IMG/VR virus record: IMGVR_UViG_3300032162_000179
Span: 1-33,526 of that record
Strand: one strand, 5' to 3'
Length of the DNA: 33,526 nt
DNA from: a virus
Taxonomy: Duplodnaviria > Caudoviricetes
Position 1 is the stretch's first letter. Every line of letters starts with the position of its first letter. Below are positions 3,508 to 8,804 of this stretch, piece by piece. The position numbers and the translations under genes are program-made. Below the pieces are notes generated by a model. It was given only the letters and a program-made list of their open reading frames with translations, did not search any database and had not been told where the DNA came from.

Positions 3508-3723
3508 TTAAGCTGCGCGGTGTTCAGAACGAGCACCGACCTTGATTGAGTTGTCGAAGCGAATGCCATAACGTTTTTTCAGCTTCTTCCTGATGCGCGA
3601 TGTGGCACGCAGATAGTTAATTACCTGCGAGACGTTGGCGCGATTCTCGCCAATCGCAAGAGCTATCTCGTTTACCTTTAATCCTCGTAATGCGAGGAAA
3701 GCCTTGATTTCGCGTGCGTTCAT
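3508..3723 (-). CDS. Cro/Ner-like HTH protein
   Basis: 71 aa, basic, EIKAFLALRGLKVNEIALAIGENRANVSQVI; divergent from the repressor. Confidence 0.8.
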   Translation of the reverse strand: MNAREIKAFLALRGLKVNEIALAIGENRANVSQVINYLRATSRIRKKLKKRYGIRFDNSIKVGARSEHRAA

Positions 3724-3747
3724 GTCGTATTTTCCAGAGCAACAATC

Positions 3748-3988
3748 GGAACGAATGTTCCAAACAAGGCGAGATATTAAAACAGATGTTGGATTCGGTC
3801 AAGGAAAATCAAACAAGCGTTTCACGGGAAACATTTGCTAATCGCTTCGCTGAATTGTTTAACTTTGCTTCGGCGGCTGAAATAGGACGCAAAATTGATA
3901 TTCCGCACGCTACTGTGAGTAATTATTTGAAGGGCAGAATGCCCGCGCCAGATGTTCTTGTCAAAATTGCAAATCAAACAAGCGTTTC
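3748..3988. promoter_or_regulatory. Putative operators RAAC-N4-GTTY at 3749-3760, 3811-3822 and 3976-3987
   Basis: GGAACGAATGTTCC palindrome plus an exact 18-bp direct repeat AAATCAAACAAGCGTTTC (3806-3823, 3971-3988). Confidence 0.5.
3774..3802 (-). promoter_or_regulatory. Putative sigma70 early promoter (TTGACC-N17-TAATAT)
   Basis: Minus-strand -35 at 3802-3797, -10 at 3779-3774, about 50 bp upstream of cro. Confidence 0.6.
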
Positions 3989-4295
3989 GCTAAATTGGCT
4001 TCTAATCGGTGAGGGTTCAAAATTTTTAACAAAAGAAATAAATCAATCTGGAGCAGTTTCCGAACCGTTTACGCAGCCTTATGCGATTTTTAATGAAGAA
4101 GCTTTGGCGCTATTCATCAGGCGTATAGCACGCGAAGAATTAGAAGATGCTATTAGAGAAGAATACTTTATTGATGCGGCTTCACAGCAAGCTAATGTTA
4201 GAGATATACAGTCAGCGCAGAAGGAATTAGTTGATGATTTAGGCAGCGTCGGCGGCGAGGCTCAAGAAAGAGTCGCAAAGAAAAGGAAGGCGTAG
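3786..4295 (+). CDS. CI-like repressor, XRE HTH domain
   Basis: FANRF...SAAEIGRKIDIPHATVSNYLKGRMPAPDVLVKIA...VSLNWLLIGEG is a classic XRE HTH; start at 3786 is uncertain. Confidence 0.85.
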   Translation: MLDSVKENQTSVSRETFANRFAELFNFASAAEIGRKIDIPHATVSNYLKGRMPAPDVLVKIANQTSVSLNWLLIGEGSKFLTKEINQSGAVSEPFTQPYAIFNEEALALFIRRIAREELEDAIREEYFIDAASQQANVRDIQSAQKELVDDLGSVGGEAQERVAKKRKA

Positions 4296-4298
4296 ATT

Positions 4299-4721
4299 AT
4301 GTTAAGCGGTTTCACACGGGCAGAGCGCGTTCGCGTTCCAGATGTCGGGCAATTAGCAGCCGGATCAACTGTGCTATTTGAGCCGCGCGGTAAAGTCTGG
4401 ATTACACGTCCAGTTAATGCTCGTCCCGGCGATCTGCTTGTCTCGGCACGCATCAGCGGCGATTCTTTACGCAATGATGGCATCCATGATGGAGACCGTA
4501 TTACATGCCGAACAAACTTTGTATTGTCCGAGATTCGTAATGGACGGTTGGTTGTAGTCAAACTGCCGTGTAGTGGATTAGTCGTCAAGCATTTTCATTT
4601 GCAAGAGAATAGGATGGTGCTTCTGCGTTCAGCTAATCCGAAGTATAAGGACTTGCCGTTCGATCTTGACGAAATCGAAATCAAAGCCGTCGTGCTAGAA
4701 AGCACCCGTATATGGGAGTAA
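4299..4721 (+). CDS. Stand-alone S24 peptidase (LexA/UmuD C-terminal-like)
   Basis: VPDVGQLAAG Ala-Gly cleavage site, ISGDSL catalytic Ser, GIHDGD, VVK catalytic Lys, LRSANPKY; own AGGAAGG SD. Confidence 0.85.
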   Translation: MLSGFTRAERVRVPDVGQLAAGSTVLFEPRGKVWITRPVNARPGDLLVSARISGDSLRNDGIHDGDRITCRTNFVLSEIRNGRLVVVKLPCSGLVVKHFHLQENRMVLLRSANPKYKDLPFDLDEIEIKAVVLESTRIWE

Positions 4722-4737
4722 ATCAGACTATTAATCT

Positions 4738-5178
4738 ATGAAAAAGCTATTTTTAATCAGTGTCTTTGTTCTAACCTTCATCCCAACGGTGTCGGCGCAA
4801 AAACGATATGGCACTTATTACCGAAGTGACGAATATGGAAGAGGGGACATAACTTTTCAAGAAGTTCAACGTGGGAAAATCAAAGGTCTTAATTTTGAGA
4901 TTTCAATTGCGGGCGGAACCAGAGGCATTTGCATCGGCGGTCTCAAGGGTAAAGCTAAATGGATTGATGCAAATGTTGCTGAGTTTAACGGCGAGTTCAA
5001 CGAGCGTGACGCTGAAAATGGCGAAGCTATTGGTTGTCGTCTAACCTTTATTTTCTCATCCAATCGAGTAGTTGTAAGAGAACACGACTGCAATAATTTT
5101 CACGGCGCAAGTTGTCAGTTTGAAGGAACATTCAAGCGTCAGAGCGATTCAGCTAAAATCAGAAAGAAATCTAAATGA
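4738..5178 (+). CDS. Secreted/periplasmic hypothetical protein
   Basis: Sec signal MKKLFLISVFVLTFIPTVSA, four Cys, AT-richer than the structural genes. Confidence 0.75.
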   Translation: MKKLFLISVFVLTFIPTVSAQKRYGTYYRSDEYGRGDITFQEVQRGKIKGLNFEISIAGGTRGICIGGLKGKAKWIDANVAEFNGEFNERDAENGEAIGCRLTFIFSSNRVVVREHDCNNFHGASCQFEGTFKRQSDSAKIRKKSK

Positions 5179-5686: not shown

Positions 5687-6166
5687 ATGAACCGCACGAA
5701 GCAAAAAGAAGTCGAACAACTGCTCGCCGAATGGTCTGAACGACAAGCGGCTTACAAGCGCGTCACAGCCAAGCGCGACCGCATGTTGCAGCCGCTTCGT
5801 GAAGTGTTCGATGCTTCTGCCAACCCGATTAACGAACACGCAGCGGCGAAGCTGCGTCCACTTGAGGAGGAAATCAATGCGCTAGAAAAGCAGATAAAGT
5901 CCGCCATGCTCGCCGAAGCCGAAGCGAACGGTTCGGTGTCGCGCATCTCTAGCAGCACAGCCGTCGCGGAAATCTCGACCACTTCGCGCCGTGAAATCAA
6001 TCCACAAACTTTCTTCAATAACATTCCAGTAGACGAGCACGGCCACGCCTTCTGGAGTTGCTTTAGCGTGCTCATCGGACGCGCCGAAAAGTTCTTGGGC
6101 AGCGGTATTGATCGTATCGCTTCACTCAAGCACACGCATAACGTTTCAATCCGGGCGAAGGAATAA
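5687..6166 (+). CDS. Coiled-coil protein, possibly Mu Gam-like
   Basis: 159 aa; EVEQLLAEW...LRPLEEEINALEKQIK long helix then a short beta region, as in Gam-family proteins. Confidence 0.45.
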   Translation: MNRTKQKEVEQLLAEWSERQAAYKRVTAKRDRMLQPLREVFDASANPINEHAAAKLRPLEEEINALEKQIKSAMLAEAEANGSVSRISSSTAVAEISTTSRREINPQTFFNNIPVDEHGHAFWSCFSVLIGRAEKFLGSGIDRIASLKHTHNVSIRAKE

Positions 6167-6169
6167 GTC

Positions 6170-6721
6170 ATGTCAAAACTTGTGCCAATCGTGATTCTTG
6201 GAATCTACAAAACGGCAAATGGGCAATTGCCCGCGCACATGGCTCAACTCGCGCCCGACGCCGCCGCGTCGCTCGCCGAAGTCAACGACGAGATTAAACG
6301 GCGCGGCGGCACTCTTCGTTTGTCCGACGCTTATCGTGATTCGGCGATGCAGGCAAAGGCGCACGACGATTATGTGCATGGGCGAAAGACTGCTTACTCG
6401 CCGCCAGCCGGTTCGTCTATGCACGAAGCCGGACGCGCCATCGATGTTGATCTTGCGACGCTCATTCATCCCGGCTCAGTTCCCGCCGGTCACACGCTGT
6501 TCAACGAAAACGAAATCCGCTCGATCTTCGGCGCGCACGGCTGGACGTTCATCGCGCCCGTCGGCAACCCGCACAGCGTCGATGTTGCCGAGAGTTGGCA
6601 TTTTGAAAAAAGAGGCAAGTTCGCGGAAGTCTATGACAAGACGCTGAAAGACACGCTCGATCACAAAGCCGCCTACCGCGCGATGACGCGCGCGGCCATC
6701 GCCGATTTATCACACAACTAA
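6170..6721 (+). CDS. Endolysin, peptidase M15 family
   Basis: SDAYRDSAMQ, SMHEAGRAID (SxHxxGxAxD) and ESWHFE (ExxH) zinc motifs. Confidence 0.9.
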   Translation: MSKLVPIVILGIYKTANGQLPAHMAQLAPDAAASLAEVNDEIKRRGGTLRLSDAYRDSAMQAKAHDDYVHGRKTAYSPPAGSSMHEAGRAIDVDLATLIHPGSVPAGHTLFNENEIRSIFGAHGWTFIAPVGNPHSVDVAESWHFEKRGKFAEVYDKTLKDTLDHKAAYRAMTRAAIADLSHN

Positions 6722-6758
6722 TTTTCGGATTTTATCGAAGGCATCTGAAGGAGAATTT

Positions 6759-7568
6759 ATGCGGAGGCTGATTGTTATCTATCATCTGTGCGCGGCGTTT
6801 GCTCATTCGATCACGCGCTCGAAACTGATTTCGGTTCTCGGTTTAGTAACAGTGGTGTTGAGCGCAGTCAATCCGCAAGTCTTTGTCGGTCACCCGCGCG
6901 TACAGGCGCTGCTGGTCACTATTGGCTCTGTCGCCGCCGCGCTCGGTCGCGCATTGCTCGCGTCGAGCGTCCCGCCGCAACCAGACCGCGTATCCGGCGG
7001 GCAAAGATTACGGAGCATTGTGCCGCTGCTTTTCCTCGCGCCGCTGCTCGGTCTGGCCTTCCTCTCGTCAGCTTGCGACAAGGATCAACTGCACCGCGCG
7101 GCAGTGGCCTCTGACCGCATGGCAAGCCTCGTATCTGTCGGCATCGATCTCAAACGCGAACTGCGCGCCGAGGACAAGATTGACGACAGCAGCGAACTCG
7201 AACTAACGCGTGATTTGCTTGATTTGAACACGGCCGTGACGCTGCTGAACGACCACGCGCGCCGCTATCAAACCTTCAACGCGACAGCGCAGGGCGATCT
7301 CAAACAAGCGTTCAGCACGGTCTCGCTGGCCTTTGCTGCTTTTGCCAACGATACGACGCTGCACATCAAGAATCCGGCAGCGCAGGCCAGACTCGCGCCC
7401 GTGCTCGCCAGCATGAGAGCCGCGATGTTTATCATCGGCGCGGTGCTCGGCAACGATTCACTGCGCAAGCCTGCTCCCGTACACACGATTGACCCGCCGC
7501 ACGGCCCCATCGCAGGCGGCACTGAGGGCGTCCGGCAAGTTCTTTCCTGTGGAGGCGTTTATGTCTGA
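6759..7568 (+). CDS. Holin-like membrane protein with internal lipobox (holin/spanin candidate)
   Basis: AAGGAG SD; two N-terminal hydrophobic helices, third helix ending LSSA-C106, helical C-terminal domain; follows the endolysin. Confidence 0.6.
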   Translation: MRRLIVIYHLCAAFAHSITRSKLISVLGLVTVVLSAVNPQVFVGHPRVQALLVTIGSVAAALGRALLASSVPPQPDRVSGGQRLRSIVPLLFLAPLLGLAFLSSACDKDQLHRAAVASDRMASLVSVGIDLKRELRAEDKIDDSSELELTRDLLDLNTAVTLLNDHARRYQTFNATAQGDLKQAFSTVSLAFAAFANDTTLHIKNPAAQARLAPVLASMRAAMFIIGAVLGNDSLRKPAPVHTIDPPHGPIAGGTEGVRQVLSCGGVYV

Positions 7569-7761
7569 ATCAACTGACACGCAAAAGCTTTACGAGATGC
7601 TGCCATTGGCAGTGAAAACCGCGCAGGAAGTCGTGACGTTGCTCGCCGCCGAGCGCGCCCGTTCCGGCATGACGACGGAACAGATTTTCGAGAAAGCGGG
7701 CATCACGCTGGAAGAGAACGACGCGCGGCTGCTCGAAGACCTCGCGCTTTTACAGGGATAG
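7561..7761 (+). CDS. Small hypothetical protein (66 aa)
   Basis: GGAGG SD before ATG 7561; amphipathic helices. Confidence 0.7.
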   Translation: MSESTDTQKLYEMLPLAVKTAQEVVTLLAAERARSGMTTEQIFEKAGITLEENDARLLEDLALLQG

Positions 7762-7774
7762 GACGACGCAGGCA

Positions 7775-8290
7775 ATGGCAGAGAGAACCTCGCAAGCGGA
7801 TCGGATCACAAGGGTCGAAGCACAAGTGGCAGAGTTGAAAGAAAACTATGCCTCCCAATTATGGGTGACGAACAAAGTCACGTCCATCGAAAGCGCGATG
7901 ACGGTGATGCGCTCGACGCTGGAAGAGATGGCGCGGCGTTTTGACACAACCACCACGCAGATGGCCGACCAGTTGAGAACAGTGTTTCGCACGCAGGACG
8001 AAATCTTGAAAGCCAAAGGCGAACAGGACAGACAACTGGTCGAAGCGCGCATCGAGCTTGAGCGAGCTCTAGGTAAGGCGCAGCTCAAAATTTTAGAAGA
8101 CAAAGCGGCGCAAGATAGAGAAGACCACGAACGCGAACGCACCGAGCGCGAGCAGATGCGCTGGTACAACCTCGTCAAAGATCGCTACGGGCCGCTCGTC
8201 GGCTTGCTCGGCGGCATTTGTTTGTTGATGAGTGCCGTCGGCGCAGGGGTGATGTGGTGGATTGTGACGGCGATGGCTGCGCACAAGTGA
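7775..8290 (+). CDS. Coiled-coil protein with C-terminal TM segment
   Basis: DRITRVEAQVAELKE coiled coil; LVGLLGGICLLMSAVGAGVMWWIV TM; common architecture in lysis cassettes. Confidence 0.7.
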   Translation: MAERTSQADRITRVEAQVAELKENYASQLWVTNKVTSIESAMTVMRSTLEEMARRFDTTTTQMADQLRTVFRTQDEILKAKGEQDRQLVEARIELERALGKAQLKILEDKAAQDREDHERERTEREQMRWYNLVKDRYGPLVGLLGGICLLMSAVGAGVMWWIVTAMAAHK

Positions 8291-8294
8291 ACAG

Positions 8295-8804
8295 ATGAAG
8301 CAACGCATTCTAATTGTCGAAGATTTCGAGCCGTCCGCCGAACTGCTCCGCGTTTGGTTGAGTAGTCTCGGCTTCGTTGTTGACGTTGCGCCGGGAGGCT
8401 GTGAAGCCCTCGCGCTGCACAAAGCGGCACGCGCCGAGCACCGCGATTACAGTGTGATTGTGCTCGACTTGGCGATGCCGGAGATGGGCGGCTTTGAGGT
8501 CGCTGAAAATATACGATTGACCGACACGGATATTGAAATCGCAATCTGGTCGGCAAACGTTGATTCGCTCGGCATCGCCCGTGCCGCGTTGCTCGGCATC
8601 ACGGAGATCATGCGCAAGCCGACTCCTCTGGAGCAGATAGAGTCCGCAATCAGGCGCTGCCTTGAGCGAAGTCGAGGGAATCTCGTGGATAAACAAAGTA
8701 AGTGTCCAAAATGTGAGCAAATCAATAAAGCGCAAACCGGCGAACATCCGTGCGAAGAATGCGGGTTGCCAATTCTTCATGATGAGAAAGTGAATGACAC
8801 CTAA
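8295..8804 (+). CDS. CheY-like response-regulator receiver with C-terminal Zn ribbon
   Basis: ILIVED, VIVLDLAMPEMGG, IWSA, RKP: all conserved receiver residues; CPKC-x13-CEEC at the C-terminus. Confidence 0.9.
   Translation: MKQRILIVEDFEPSAELLRVWLSSLGFVVDVAPGGCEALALHKAARAEHRDYSVIVLDLAMPEMGGFEVAENIRLTDTDIEIAIWSANVDSLGIARAALLGITEIMRKPTPLEQIESAIRRCLERSRGNLVDKQSKCPKCEQINKAQTGEHPCEECGLPILHDEKVNDT

Follow-up and report, generated by a model that had tools for sequence, protein, structure and literature searches.

The described phage proteins closest to the locus analysed here are spanins, holins and a disruptin. The u-spanin gp11 of phage T1 carries a lipoylation signal, and u-spanins of its family possess a β-rich periplasmic domain (PMC6139136). 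In the two-component spanins, such as lambda Rz/Rz1 and T4 PseT.3/PseT.2, a lipoprotein is encoded together with an overlapping or fused partner, and PMC6139136 describes split, overlapping and fused layouts that interchange. According to bioRxiv 10.1101/515445, about 15% of phages lack spanin genes; the same preprint presents the phiKT gp28 disruptin, a small, cationic, helical protein that represents a non-spanin route through the outer membrane. Phage Mu, as described in PMC9239132, has its lysis genes before the terminase, uses a SAR endolysin, a releasin and a two-component spanin but no holin, and has nearby a gene for a cytoplasmic protein that is tethered to the membrane. Signal peptidase II substrates are defined by a basic n-region, an h-region and a lipobox (PMC9360617), the consensus of the latter being [LVI][ASTVI][GAS]C (PMC6139136). 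The peptidase, LspA, takes the signal helix from within the membrane, while the mature part lies in the periplasm (PMC9360617).

The window, a 33.5-kb virus record analysed as one stretch of DNA, has a Mu-like gene layout and encodes a 269-aa protein in which a holin-like hairpin is followed by a lipoprotein. Like T1 gp11, this protein carries a lipoylation signal, here in a lysis-like cassette in which no Rz/Rz1 shows. It differs from gp11 in that it has no C-terminal membrane helix, its signal lies mid-chain behind the holin-like part, and a separate small partner (ORF66) is encoded; moreover, the model of its lipoprotein part is all-α, in contrast to the β-rich domain of the gp11 family. 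With the lambda and T4 spanins it shares the combination of a lipoprotein and an overlapping or fused partner; however, ORF66 lies downstream, is acidic and has neither a signal nor a clear membrane helix, a Pro-rich core is absent, and no N-in/C-out coiled-coil protein was seen among the window neighbours. ORF66 resembles phiKT gp28 as a small helical protein, but it has a net charge of -6 and travels with a lipoprotein. The likeness to Mu extends to the genome layout, the lysis genes before the terminase and a membrane-tethered cytoplasmic protein nearby, whereas the window combines an unanchored endolysin with a holin-like part. In size, position and distribution of charges, this front part agrees with PF23987 (Phage_holin_10, Pam3 gp28), a family that relatives carry joined to the lipoprotein found here; unlike PF23987 and other two-helix putative holins, it gave no match to a Pfam or PHROG holin profile and carries a third, signal-type helix. 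Lambda S represents the class I holin topology; the released front fragment would be N-in with three helices and would not be a class I holin of the lambda S type.

Judged from sequence comparison, the 269-aa protein is a real fusion of a kind that recurs within a lipoprotein family; neither this family nor its partner has a name. It represents a variant of phage lysis architecture of putative function. Its reading frame holds a conserved internal signal and lies among lysis genes, and both halves are found separately elsewhere. A literature search that covered few subscription papers, with the SpaninDB supplementary tables of PMC6139136 outside its scope, yielded no natural holin-lipoprotein polyprotein, no mention of this lipoprotein family and no precedent for a precursor of several helices that is lipidated or cut at an internal signal.

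Genomic Setting and Organization of the Fusion Gene

The gene order in the window is GemA, repressor, Gam-like protein, M15/VanY peptidase, the 269-aa ORF, the 66-aa ORF, a 171-aa ORF, a receiver domain, terminase, portal, and head and tail genes (Table 1). The host is probably a member of the Blastocatellia (Acidobacteriota). In particular, the relative P0030 is annotated as Blastocatellia, with an identical sequence present in genome G261, and carriers of the lipoprotein family make up 43 of 401 genomes in the class sample that contains G261, versus 7 of 401 in the phylum sample. One carrier genome (G001, with loci L011 and L020) is titled 'uncultured Clostridia', yet it encodes LolA and LspA and belongs to the class sample in which the protein labelled Blastocatellia occurs; its title is a probable mislabel.

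Table 1. Positions of the fusion gene, its parts and its neighbours in the window
Feature	Position	Strand	Basis
Mu Gam-like gene, cluster start	5687..6166	+	phrog_491, E 0.0014
M15/VanY-type peptidase, putative endolysin	6170..6721	+	PF02557, 31 bits (cut-off 25)
Shine-Dalgarno AAGGAG, 5 nt 5' of ATG	6748..6753	+	-8.8 kcal/mol
Fusion ORF of 269 aa with a holin-like hairpin, a lipoprotein signal in mid-chain and a four-helix lipoprotein	6759..7568	+	sequence, relatives, model
Two hydrophobic helices, aa 23-68, holin-like	6825..6962	+	hydropathy
Pro/Arg linker, aa 69-87, ends RLRS, predicted cytoplasmic; n-region of the internal signal	6963..7019	+	4 K/R in aa 64-87; inferred topology
Internal signal helix, aa 88-105, and lipobox SSA-C106	7020..7076	+	hydropathy, family comparison
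Mature part (aa 107-229), predicted to be a bundle of four helices; the +2 residue is Asp	7077..7445	+	AlphaFold2, family alignment
Pro-rich tail, poorly conserved; last codons contain GGAGG of the next gene (7551-7555)	7446..7565	+	sequence, alignment
ORF66, 66-aa acidic helical partner without signal peptide; overlaps the stop of the 269-aa ORF	7561..7761	+	own GGAGG; relatives
171-aa charged helical protein, one hydrophobic helix near the C-terminus (aa 139-167)	7775..8290	+	hydropathy
Stand-alone response-regulator receiver, between lysis-like genes and terminase	8295..8804	+	PF00072, E 2e-17

The M15 peptidase is 61% identical to the endolysin of a related locus in which the two halves are split (L011). 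Hydropathy reveals neither a signal nor a SAR helix in it; thus, it would need a holin. As originally proposed, no canonical Rz/Rz1 pair is seen: the 30 window proteins compared with PHROGs, which cover all but the last ~4.5 kb, matched no Rz or Rz1 family. Nor did PHROGs and hydropathy reveal an i-spanin (N-in/C-out, with periplasmic helices) among the window neighbours. In particular, the soluble part of the 171-aa protein is predicted to be cytoplasmic, as its hydrophobic helix is C-terminal, and its topology is therefore not that of an i-spanin. This protein matches no Pfam family, and it could not be equated with a similarly shaped gene of L041, with which it does not align. Promoter and terminator scans remained at chance level.

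The reading frame, the two hydrophobic helices, the Pro/Arg linker, the RLR motif, the h-region and Cys106 are all present, as read directly from the sequence and from Kyte-Doolittle profiles. The best 19-residue means are 1.79 (residues 25-43) and 1.61 (residues 49-67) for the two hydrophobic segments and 2.06 (residues 88-106) for the h-region, with the Cys106 codon at 7074-7076. The signal had been called a textbook one; the internal h-region and Cys106 are present, but the box itself, SSA-C with Ser at -3 and Leu at -4, departs from the consensus. Despite the mismatch at -3, SSAC, TTAC and TTGC are common within the lipoprotein family. The features of a signal peptidase II substrate, that is, a basic n-region (RLR), an h-region (aa 88-105) and SSAC, are laid out as in 80 stand-alone members of the family. 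Moreover, loss of Cys106 among relatives had been named as an outcome that would speak against processing, and this Cys is invariant in 52 of 52 aligned rows.

The fusion is kept in two other proteins at 86-88% identity and occurs in frame on a contig from another study (X3); thus, it is not an assembly slip. In the two relatives, residues 70-105 are better conserved (33/36 and 34/36) than residues 1-69 (53/69 and 43/69). The Atlas model of the full 269-aa chain has a pTM of 0.48. The ORF matches no Pfam or PHROG family, and tblastn against 50,697 phage records gave no match. Single-protein scans found no relatives in viral contigs and only an identical copy in the metagenome, and of the stretches returned by two motif scans, only 1 of 5 and 2 of 18 came from members of the family.

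The Lipoprotein Family

Residues 106-229 place the protein in a family, so far without a name, whose members are predicted to be lipoproteins built as a bundle of four helices. Among 1.84 billion proteins searched there were 109 hits, mostly of ~140-170 aa and aligned to residues ~85-233 only. The back-half profile is matched by 109 of 112 stored proteins, and 104 of these 109 have a Cys after a hydrophobic stretch when scored leniently. This Cys lies in the first 45 aa in 80 of them, at or beyond position 60 in 23 and in between in 1. The 80 are ordinary stand-alone lipoproteins, while the 23 long forms (among which are counted the window protein and both of its close relatives, a near-duplicate, and P0108 with a Met of its own) carry two to four extra membrane helices at the front. 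As for the five proteins in which no Cys was called, three look truncated, one has a visible box missed by the filter and one has none; no hydrophobic front extension occurs in any of them. P0031 was disregarded as a repeat protein, and a hit in G517 (E 9.8e-4), which sits among efflux-type genes, was judged to be due to chance.

AlphaFold2 models the signal helix and, at residues 107-229, a four-helix bundle consisting of helices only (pLDDT 89, pTM 0.77). The hydrophobic stretch at residues 212-231, in which the original prediction saw a membrane anchor, is helix 4 of the bundle (206-229) in this model; it has a mean hydropathy of 1.52 and contains Arg220, and both close relatives have the substitution F224S within it. 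Across the family (n = 100), the last helix has a median hydropathy of 1.38 and a median of 2 charged residues, and only 14 of 100 reach 1.8. Since there is no C-terminal anchor and the fold is all-α without a β-rich domain, the suggestion of a single-chain u-spanin has to be abandoned. Nonetheless, the lipoprotein, though not a u-spanin, may work in a spanin's place.

The bundle (aa 106-232) contains two Pro and no further Cys. The residue at +2, to which the original prediction did not refer, is Asp in the window protein and in 29 of 104 members, and another residue in 75. By the sorting rule of E. coli, this Asp would keep the window protein in the inner membrane; the rule in an acidobacterial host may differ. 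LspA and LolA were found in all 5 carrier genomes inspected for them. Foldseek against viral and PDB libraries gave no match at E 0.001 or better, and a VIA fold search returned generic four-helix bundles only, the best (Z 15.1) being an engineered ROP bundle; a match this generic says nothing about function.

The Holin-Like Front Part and Its Exchange

The front part has the features of a holin: it is small and hydrophobic, has two membrane helices with basic cytoplasmic ends, and adjoins an endolysin. Residues 1-77 gave no Pfam or PHROG hit, holin families included. The nearest Pfam-bearing Atlas clusters are holins at 0.87-0.88, which serve as leads only, and its Atlas neighbours are viral and acidobacterial proteins of 65-89 aa. 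Front parts of the window type also occur as stand-alone genes of 72-120 aa (P0098, P0113, P0114, L060 and L061), in L060 at the opening of a gene run ahead of terminase and portal, and in a doubled, four-helix form. Thus, a homolog search with each half, as originally suggested, does find both as separate genes.

At least four unrelated front parts precede lipoproteins of the family. Single-linkage BLAST groups comprise the window type (16 members, 4 of them stand-alone), the PF23987 type (6 members, 1 stand-alone), P0009/P0035, P0006, L047 and others. PF23987, the putative holin family of Pam3 gp28, scores above cut-off in three fused cases (P0037, L039 and L055), whereas P0049 and L056 fall short of it; in L075 it is a separate gene whose stop overlaps the ATG of the lipoprotein. 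Window-type front parts are also joined to quite divergent lipoprotein domains (P0021, P0022 and P0040); the hairpin-plus-signal unit may therefore shuffle as a block.

Split, In-Frame and Fused Loci

A small hydrophobic gene lies directly upstream of the lipoprotein gene in 7 of 30 class loci (L011, L037, L041, L042, L043, L052 and L054), and two of these seven upstream genes match holin PHROGs at E ~6e-5. In L011, the endolysin is followed by a gene for a two-helix protein of 54 aa, and just 2 nt separate the stop of this gene from the lipoprotein ATG. In L049, the halves are in frame, but the lipoprotein keeps its own AGGAG and ATG. The halves are fused in L038, L039, L047, L055, L056, L058 and L059, as well as in L050, which is interrupted by the contig end. 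On the tree (FastTree, 134 rows, 132 columns, short hits and duplicates excluded), the label 'fused' switches 15 times, and starred branches force no fewer than 4 of these switches; gains and losses are indistinguishable, and some proteins taken as single may be mis-started gene calls.

In the phage loci, the lipoprotein is found beside endolysins of several families (M15, Amidase_3, lysozyme, muramidase and glucosaminidase). Of the 8 other loci with a fusion, 6 have a gene resembling a wall hydrolase no more than ~1 kb upstream; three of these score above the Pfam cut-off, two below it, and one is a DUF5675 protein, which we take to be a wall hydrolase. In L058, an HD-domain gene occupies this place.

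None of the 8 fused genes for which DNA is available has a start codon with both a Shine-Dalgarno sequence and a basic residue 12-40 codons before the Cys, and L039 has no start codon whatsoever in that interval. In stand-alone genes, a basic residue follows the start in 23 of 24, with a median Shine-Dalgarno energy of -7.75, and 76 of 80 stand-alone proteins have a basic residue in the n-region of the signal. An internal start at GTG7020 had been put forward as the observation that would overturn the idea of a single precursor. There, a GGAG ends 4 nt upstream (energy -5.4 to -5.8), a context equalled by 7% of 310 internal start-like codons; a signal begun at this codon would have no basic n-region, and the codon reads GCG in a close relative. 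As no convincing internal start exists in any of the eight fused genes and GTG7020 is lost in the relative, a single precursor cut by Lgt/LspA is likely, perhaps with some low-level use of GTG7020. P0004, P0005, P0021, P0049 and P0108, available as protein only, have a Met near the signal and may therefore keep an internal start.

ORF66 and Copies Away from Phage Genes

Earlier reading of the locus overlooked both ORF66 and the copies of the lipoprotein-ORF66 pair outside phages. Besides the window, the ORF66 family provides the next gene after the lipoprotein in 10 loci (L028-L036 and L040); it is joined whole to the C-terminus of the lipoprotein in 9 stored proteins and in part in 5 more. 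In P0030, P0037 and P0049, all three parts, i.e., front part, lipoprotein and ORF66, are united. The model of a natural lipoprotein-ORF66 fusion (P0086; pTM 0.77) has a pLDDT of 92-98 on the ORF66-like helices and a low-confidence linker, an indirect hint that these helices pack on the lipoprotein bundle. In L074, an ORF66-like gene (1997-2182) is embedded in another frame within the long C-terminal tail of the lipoprotein gene, which recalls embedded spanin layouts.

A separate clade of the pair (18 rows, 95 support on a starred branch) lies in bacterial chromosomes. In all 6 of the wider regions examined, out of 8 such loci, ORFs of at least 110 aa matched housekeeping families and no phage hallmark; obg is common to 3 of the 6, and dksA-type and comF-type neighbours occur in 2. 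The chromosomal pair is possibly a domesticated module. Several ORF66-like partners in the chromosomal pairs L063-L068 (genomes G148, G348, G154, G373, G339 and G172) end in Gly/Ser-rich tails. Moreover, the family lipoprotein is encoded among head-tail genes in L020 (3890-4369) and L028, and six Mu-like loci (L041, L048, L049 and L051-L053) have the lipoprotein with no endolysin within 1.5 kb. A pure lysis role therefore does not explain the copies that lie without phage genes or among head-tail genes.

Proposed Mechanism and Alternative Explanations

We propose, at about even chances, that one chain comprising a likely holin part and a lipoprotein is split by host Lgt/LspA at Cys106 and that both products serve lysis. 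Cleavage of one chain in two by the host lipoprotein peptidase is likely because related phages carry the parts either separate or fused. The full 269-aa chain is very probably the main product. Three helices inserted N-in would then bring Cys106 to the periplasmic face, where processing probably takes place. A lipoprotein signal has to cross the membrane towards the periplasmic side, which would leave the linker and the basic N-terminus in the cytoplasm and the short loop outside; the numbers of K/R in linker, loop and N-terminus (4, 1 and 4) agree with this topology. Lgt would lipidate Cys106 and LspA would cut between Ala105 and Cys106; as LspA gains access from within the membrane, the upstream helices need not block it. 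The 105-aa fragment, i.e., the hairpin with the spent signal helix, perhaps trimmed further, is then reasonably expected to act as a holin and free the adjacent endolysin. In the weakest step, which is tentative, the lipoprotein would go to the outer membrane, bind the C-terminal helices of ORF66 and replace the missing spanin; a role of the lipoprotein in outer-membrane disruption is plausible. With both parts on one chain, holin and lipoprotein would be produced at a fixed ratio of 1:1, a step beyond the translational coupling of the split loci.

A broader version of this proposal, which we regard as rather unlikely, holds that acidobacterial phages use an undescribed substitute for a spanin that is helical throughout and combines a four-helix lipoprotein of the outer membrane with ORF66. 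Some phages would encode it as an LspA-split three-part polyprotein (P0030, P0037 and P0049), the window partner would remain cytoplasmic until the holin opens the inner membrane, and some bacteria would have domesticated the pair.

Other explanations differ in where the lipoprotein acts and how it is made. Freed or still attached, it might stay at the inner membrane and regulate the holin from the periplasm as an antiholin or like the T4 holin T domain; the periplasmic domain of holin T in the T/RI system of T4 provides a parallel for such regulation. The Asp at +2 in the window and 29 of 104 members, the soluble bundle without a membrane-active motif and the repeated joining to holin-like parts agree with this idea. 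It is nevertheless improbable, as the other 75 members have another +2 residue, the front partners come from unrelated families, which is hard to reconcile with a specific protein contact, the Cys is retained in all 23 detected long forms, and copies exist without any holin-like neighbour. Those copies, in particular the separate chromosomal clade with no phage hallmark in 6 of 6 regions and the genes among head-tail genes in L020 and L028, agree with another idea, namely that the lipoprotein-ORF66 pair is no lysis device but an envelope module for superinfection exclusion, lysogen fitness or the virion, which was fused to the holin merely as the next gene in a late operon; the lack of a spanin family or fold match points the same way. 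However, phage copies adjoin several endolysin families and directly follow holin-like genes, and fusion to a holin ties synthesis of the lipoprotein to the end of infection, so that we consider this explanation, too, to have only a small chance of being correct.

That the lipoprotein is an o-spanin whose partner is a neighbouring coiled-coil inner-membrane protein is quite improbable. In L048, L052 and L053, a nearby gene for an N-terminal helix and a coiled coil has a weak Rz-like PHROG match (E 7e-4 to 3e-3), but such matches may reflect any helix plus coiled coil. Directly upstream in L029 (547-1350), L045 (2032-2895) and L046 (672-1481) are proteins of 268-288 aa with an N-terminal membrane helix and a long helical part, and PMC6139136 describes o-spanins that can be partly helical. 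On the other hand, the sole candidate partner in the window (7775-8290) has a C-terminal hydrophobic helix, with its long part predicted in the cytoplasm, and the lipoprotein itself is a bundle with 2 Pro and no further Cys. Separate synthesis of the two parts, with the lipoprotein starting at GTG7020 and the long frame incidental, would agree with the GGAG 4 nt before this codon (-5.4) and with L049, in which such an arrangement exists. We regard it as very improbable: the signal would lack the basic n-region that stand-alone members have at 23 of 24 starts and in 76 of 80 proteins, a close relative reads GCG in place of GTG7020, a candidate start is missing from L039, and, with no stop between the parts, any synthesis of the upstream part would entail that of the lipoprotein as well.

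If the LspA-split precursor is confirmed, it would represent natural Lgt/LspA action on a lipobox that two to four membrane helices precede, and a phage would be using a host peptidase to obtain two lysis proteins from one gene. Signal-peptide predictors focused on the N-terminus would miss such internal lipoboxes. The proposal further offers a candidate for the outer-membrane step in a phage without a detected spanin, a gap that is already known, and the natural split, in-frame and fused versions are ready controls.

Other Genes of the Window and Related Loci

The receiver domain occupies the same place, between lysis-like genes and terminase, in L041/L070 and L052, and HD-domain genes are found at similar places in L058, L049 and L053. 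In the immunity region of the window, the repressor-like HTH (3714-4295) and the S24 peptidase (4299-4721) are encoded by neighbouring genes instead of forming a single CI protein, a pair that recurs in L070. They are followed by a 146-aa gene (4738-5178) that matches no family and has a signal-peptide-like start; it is a possible moron.
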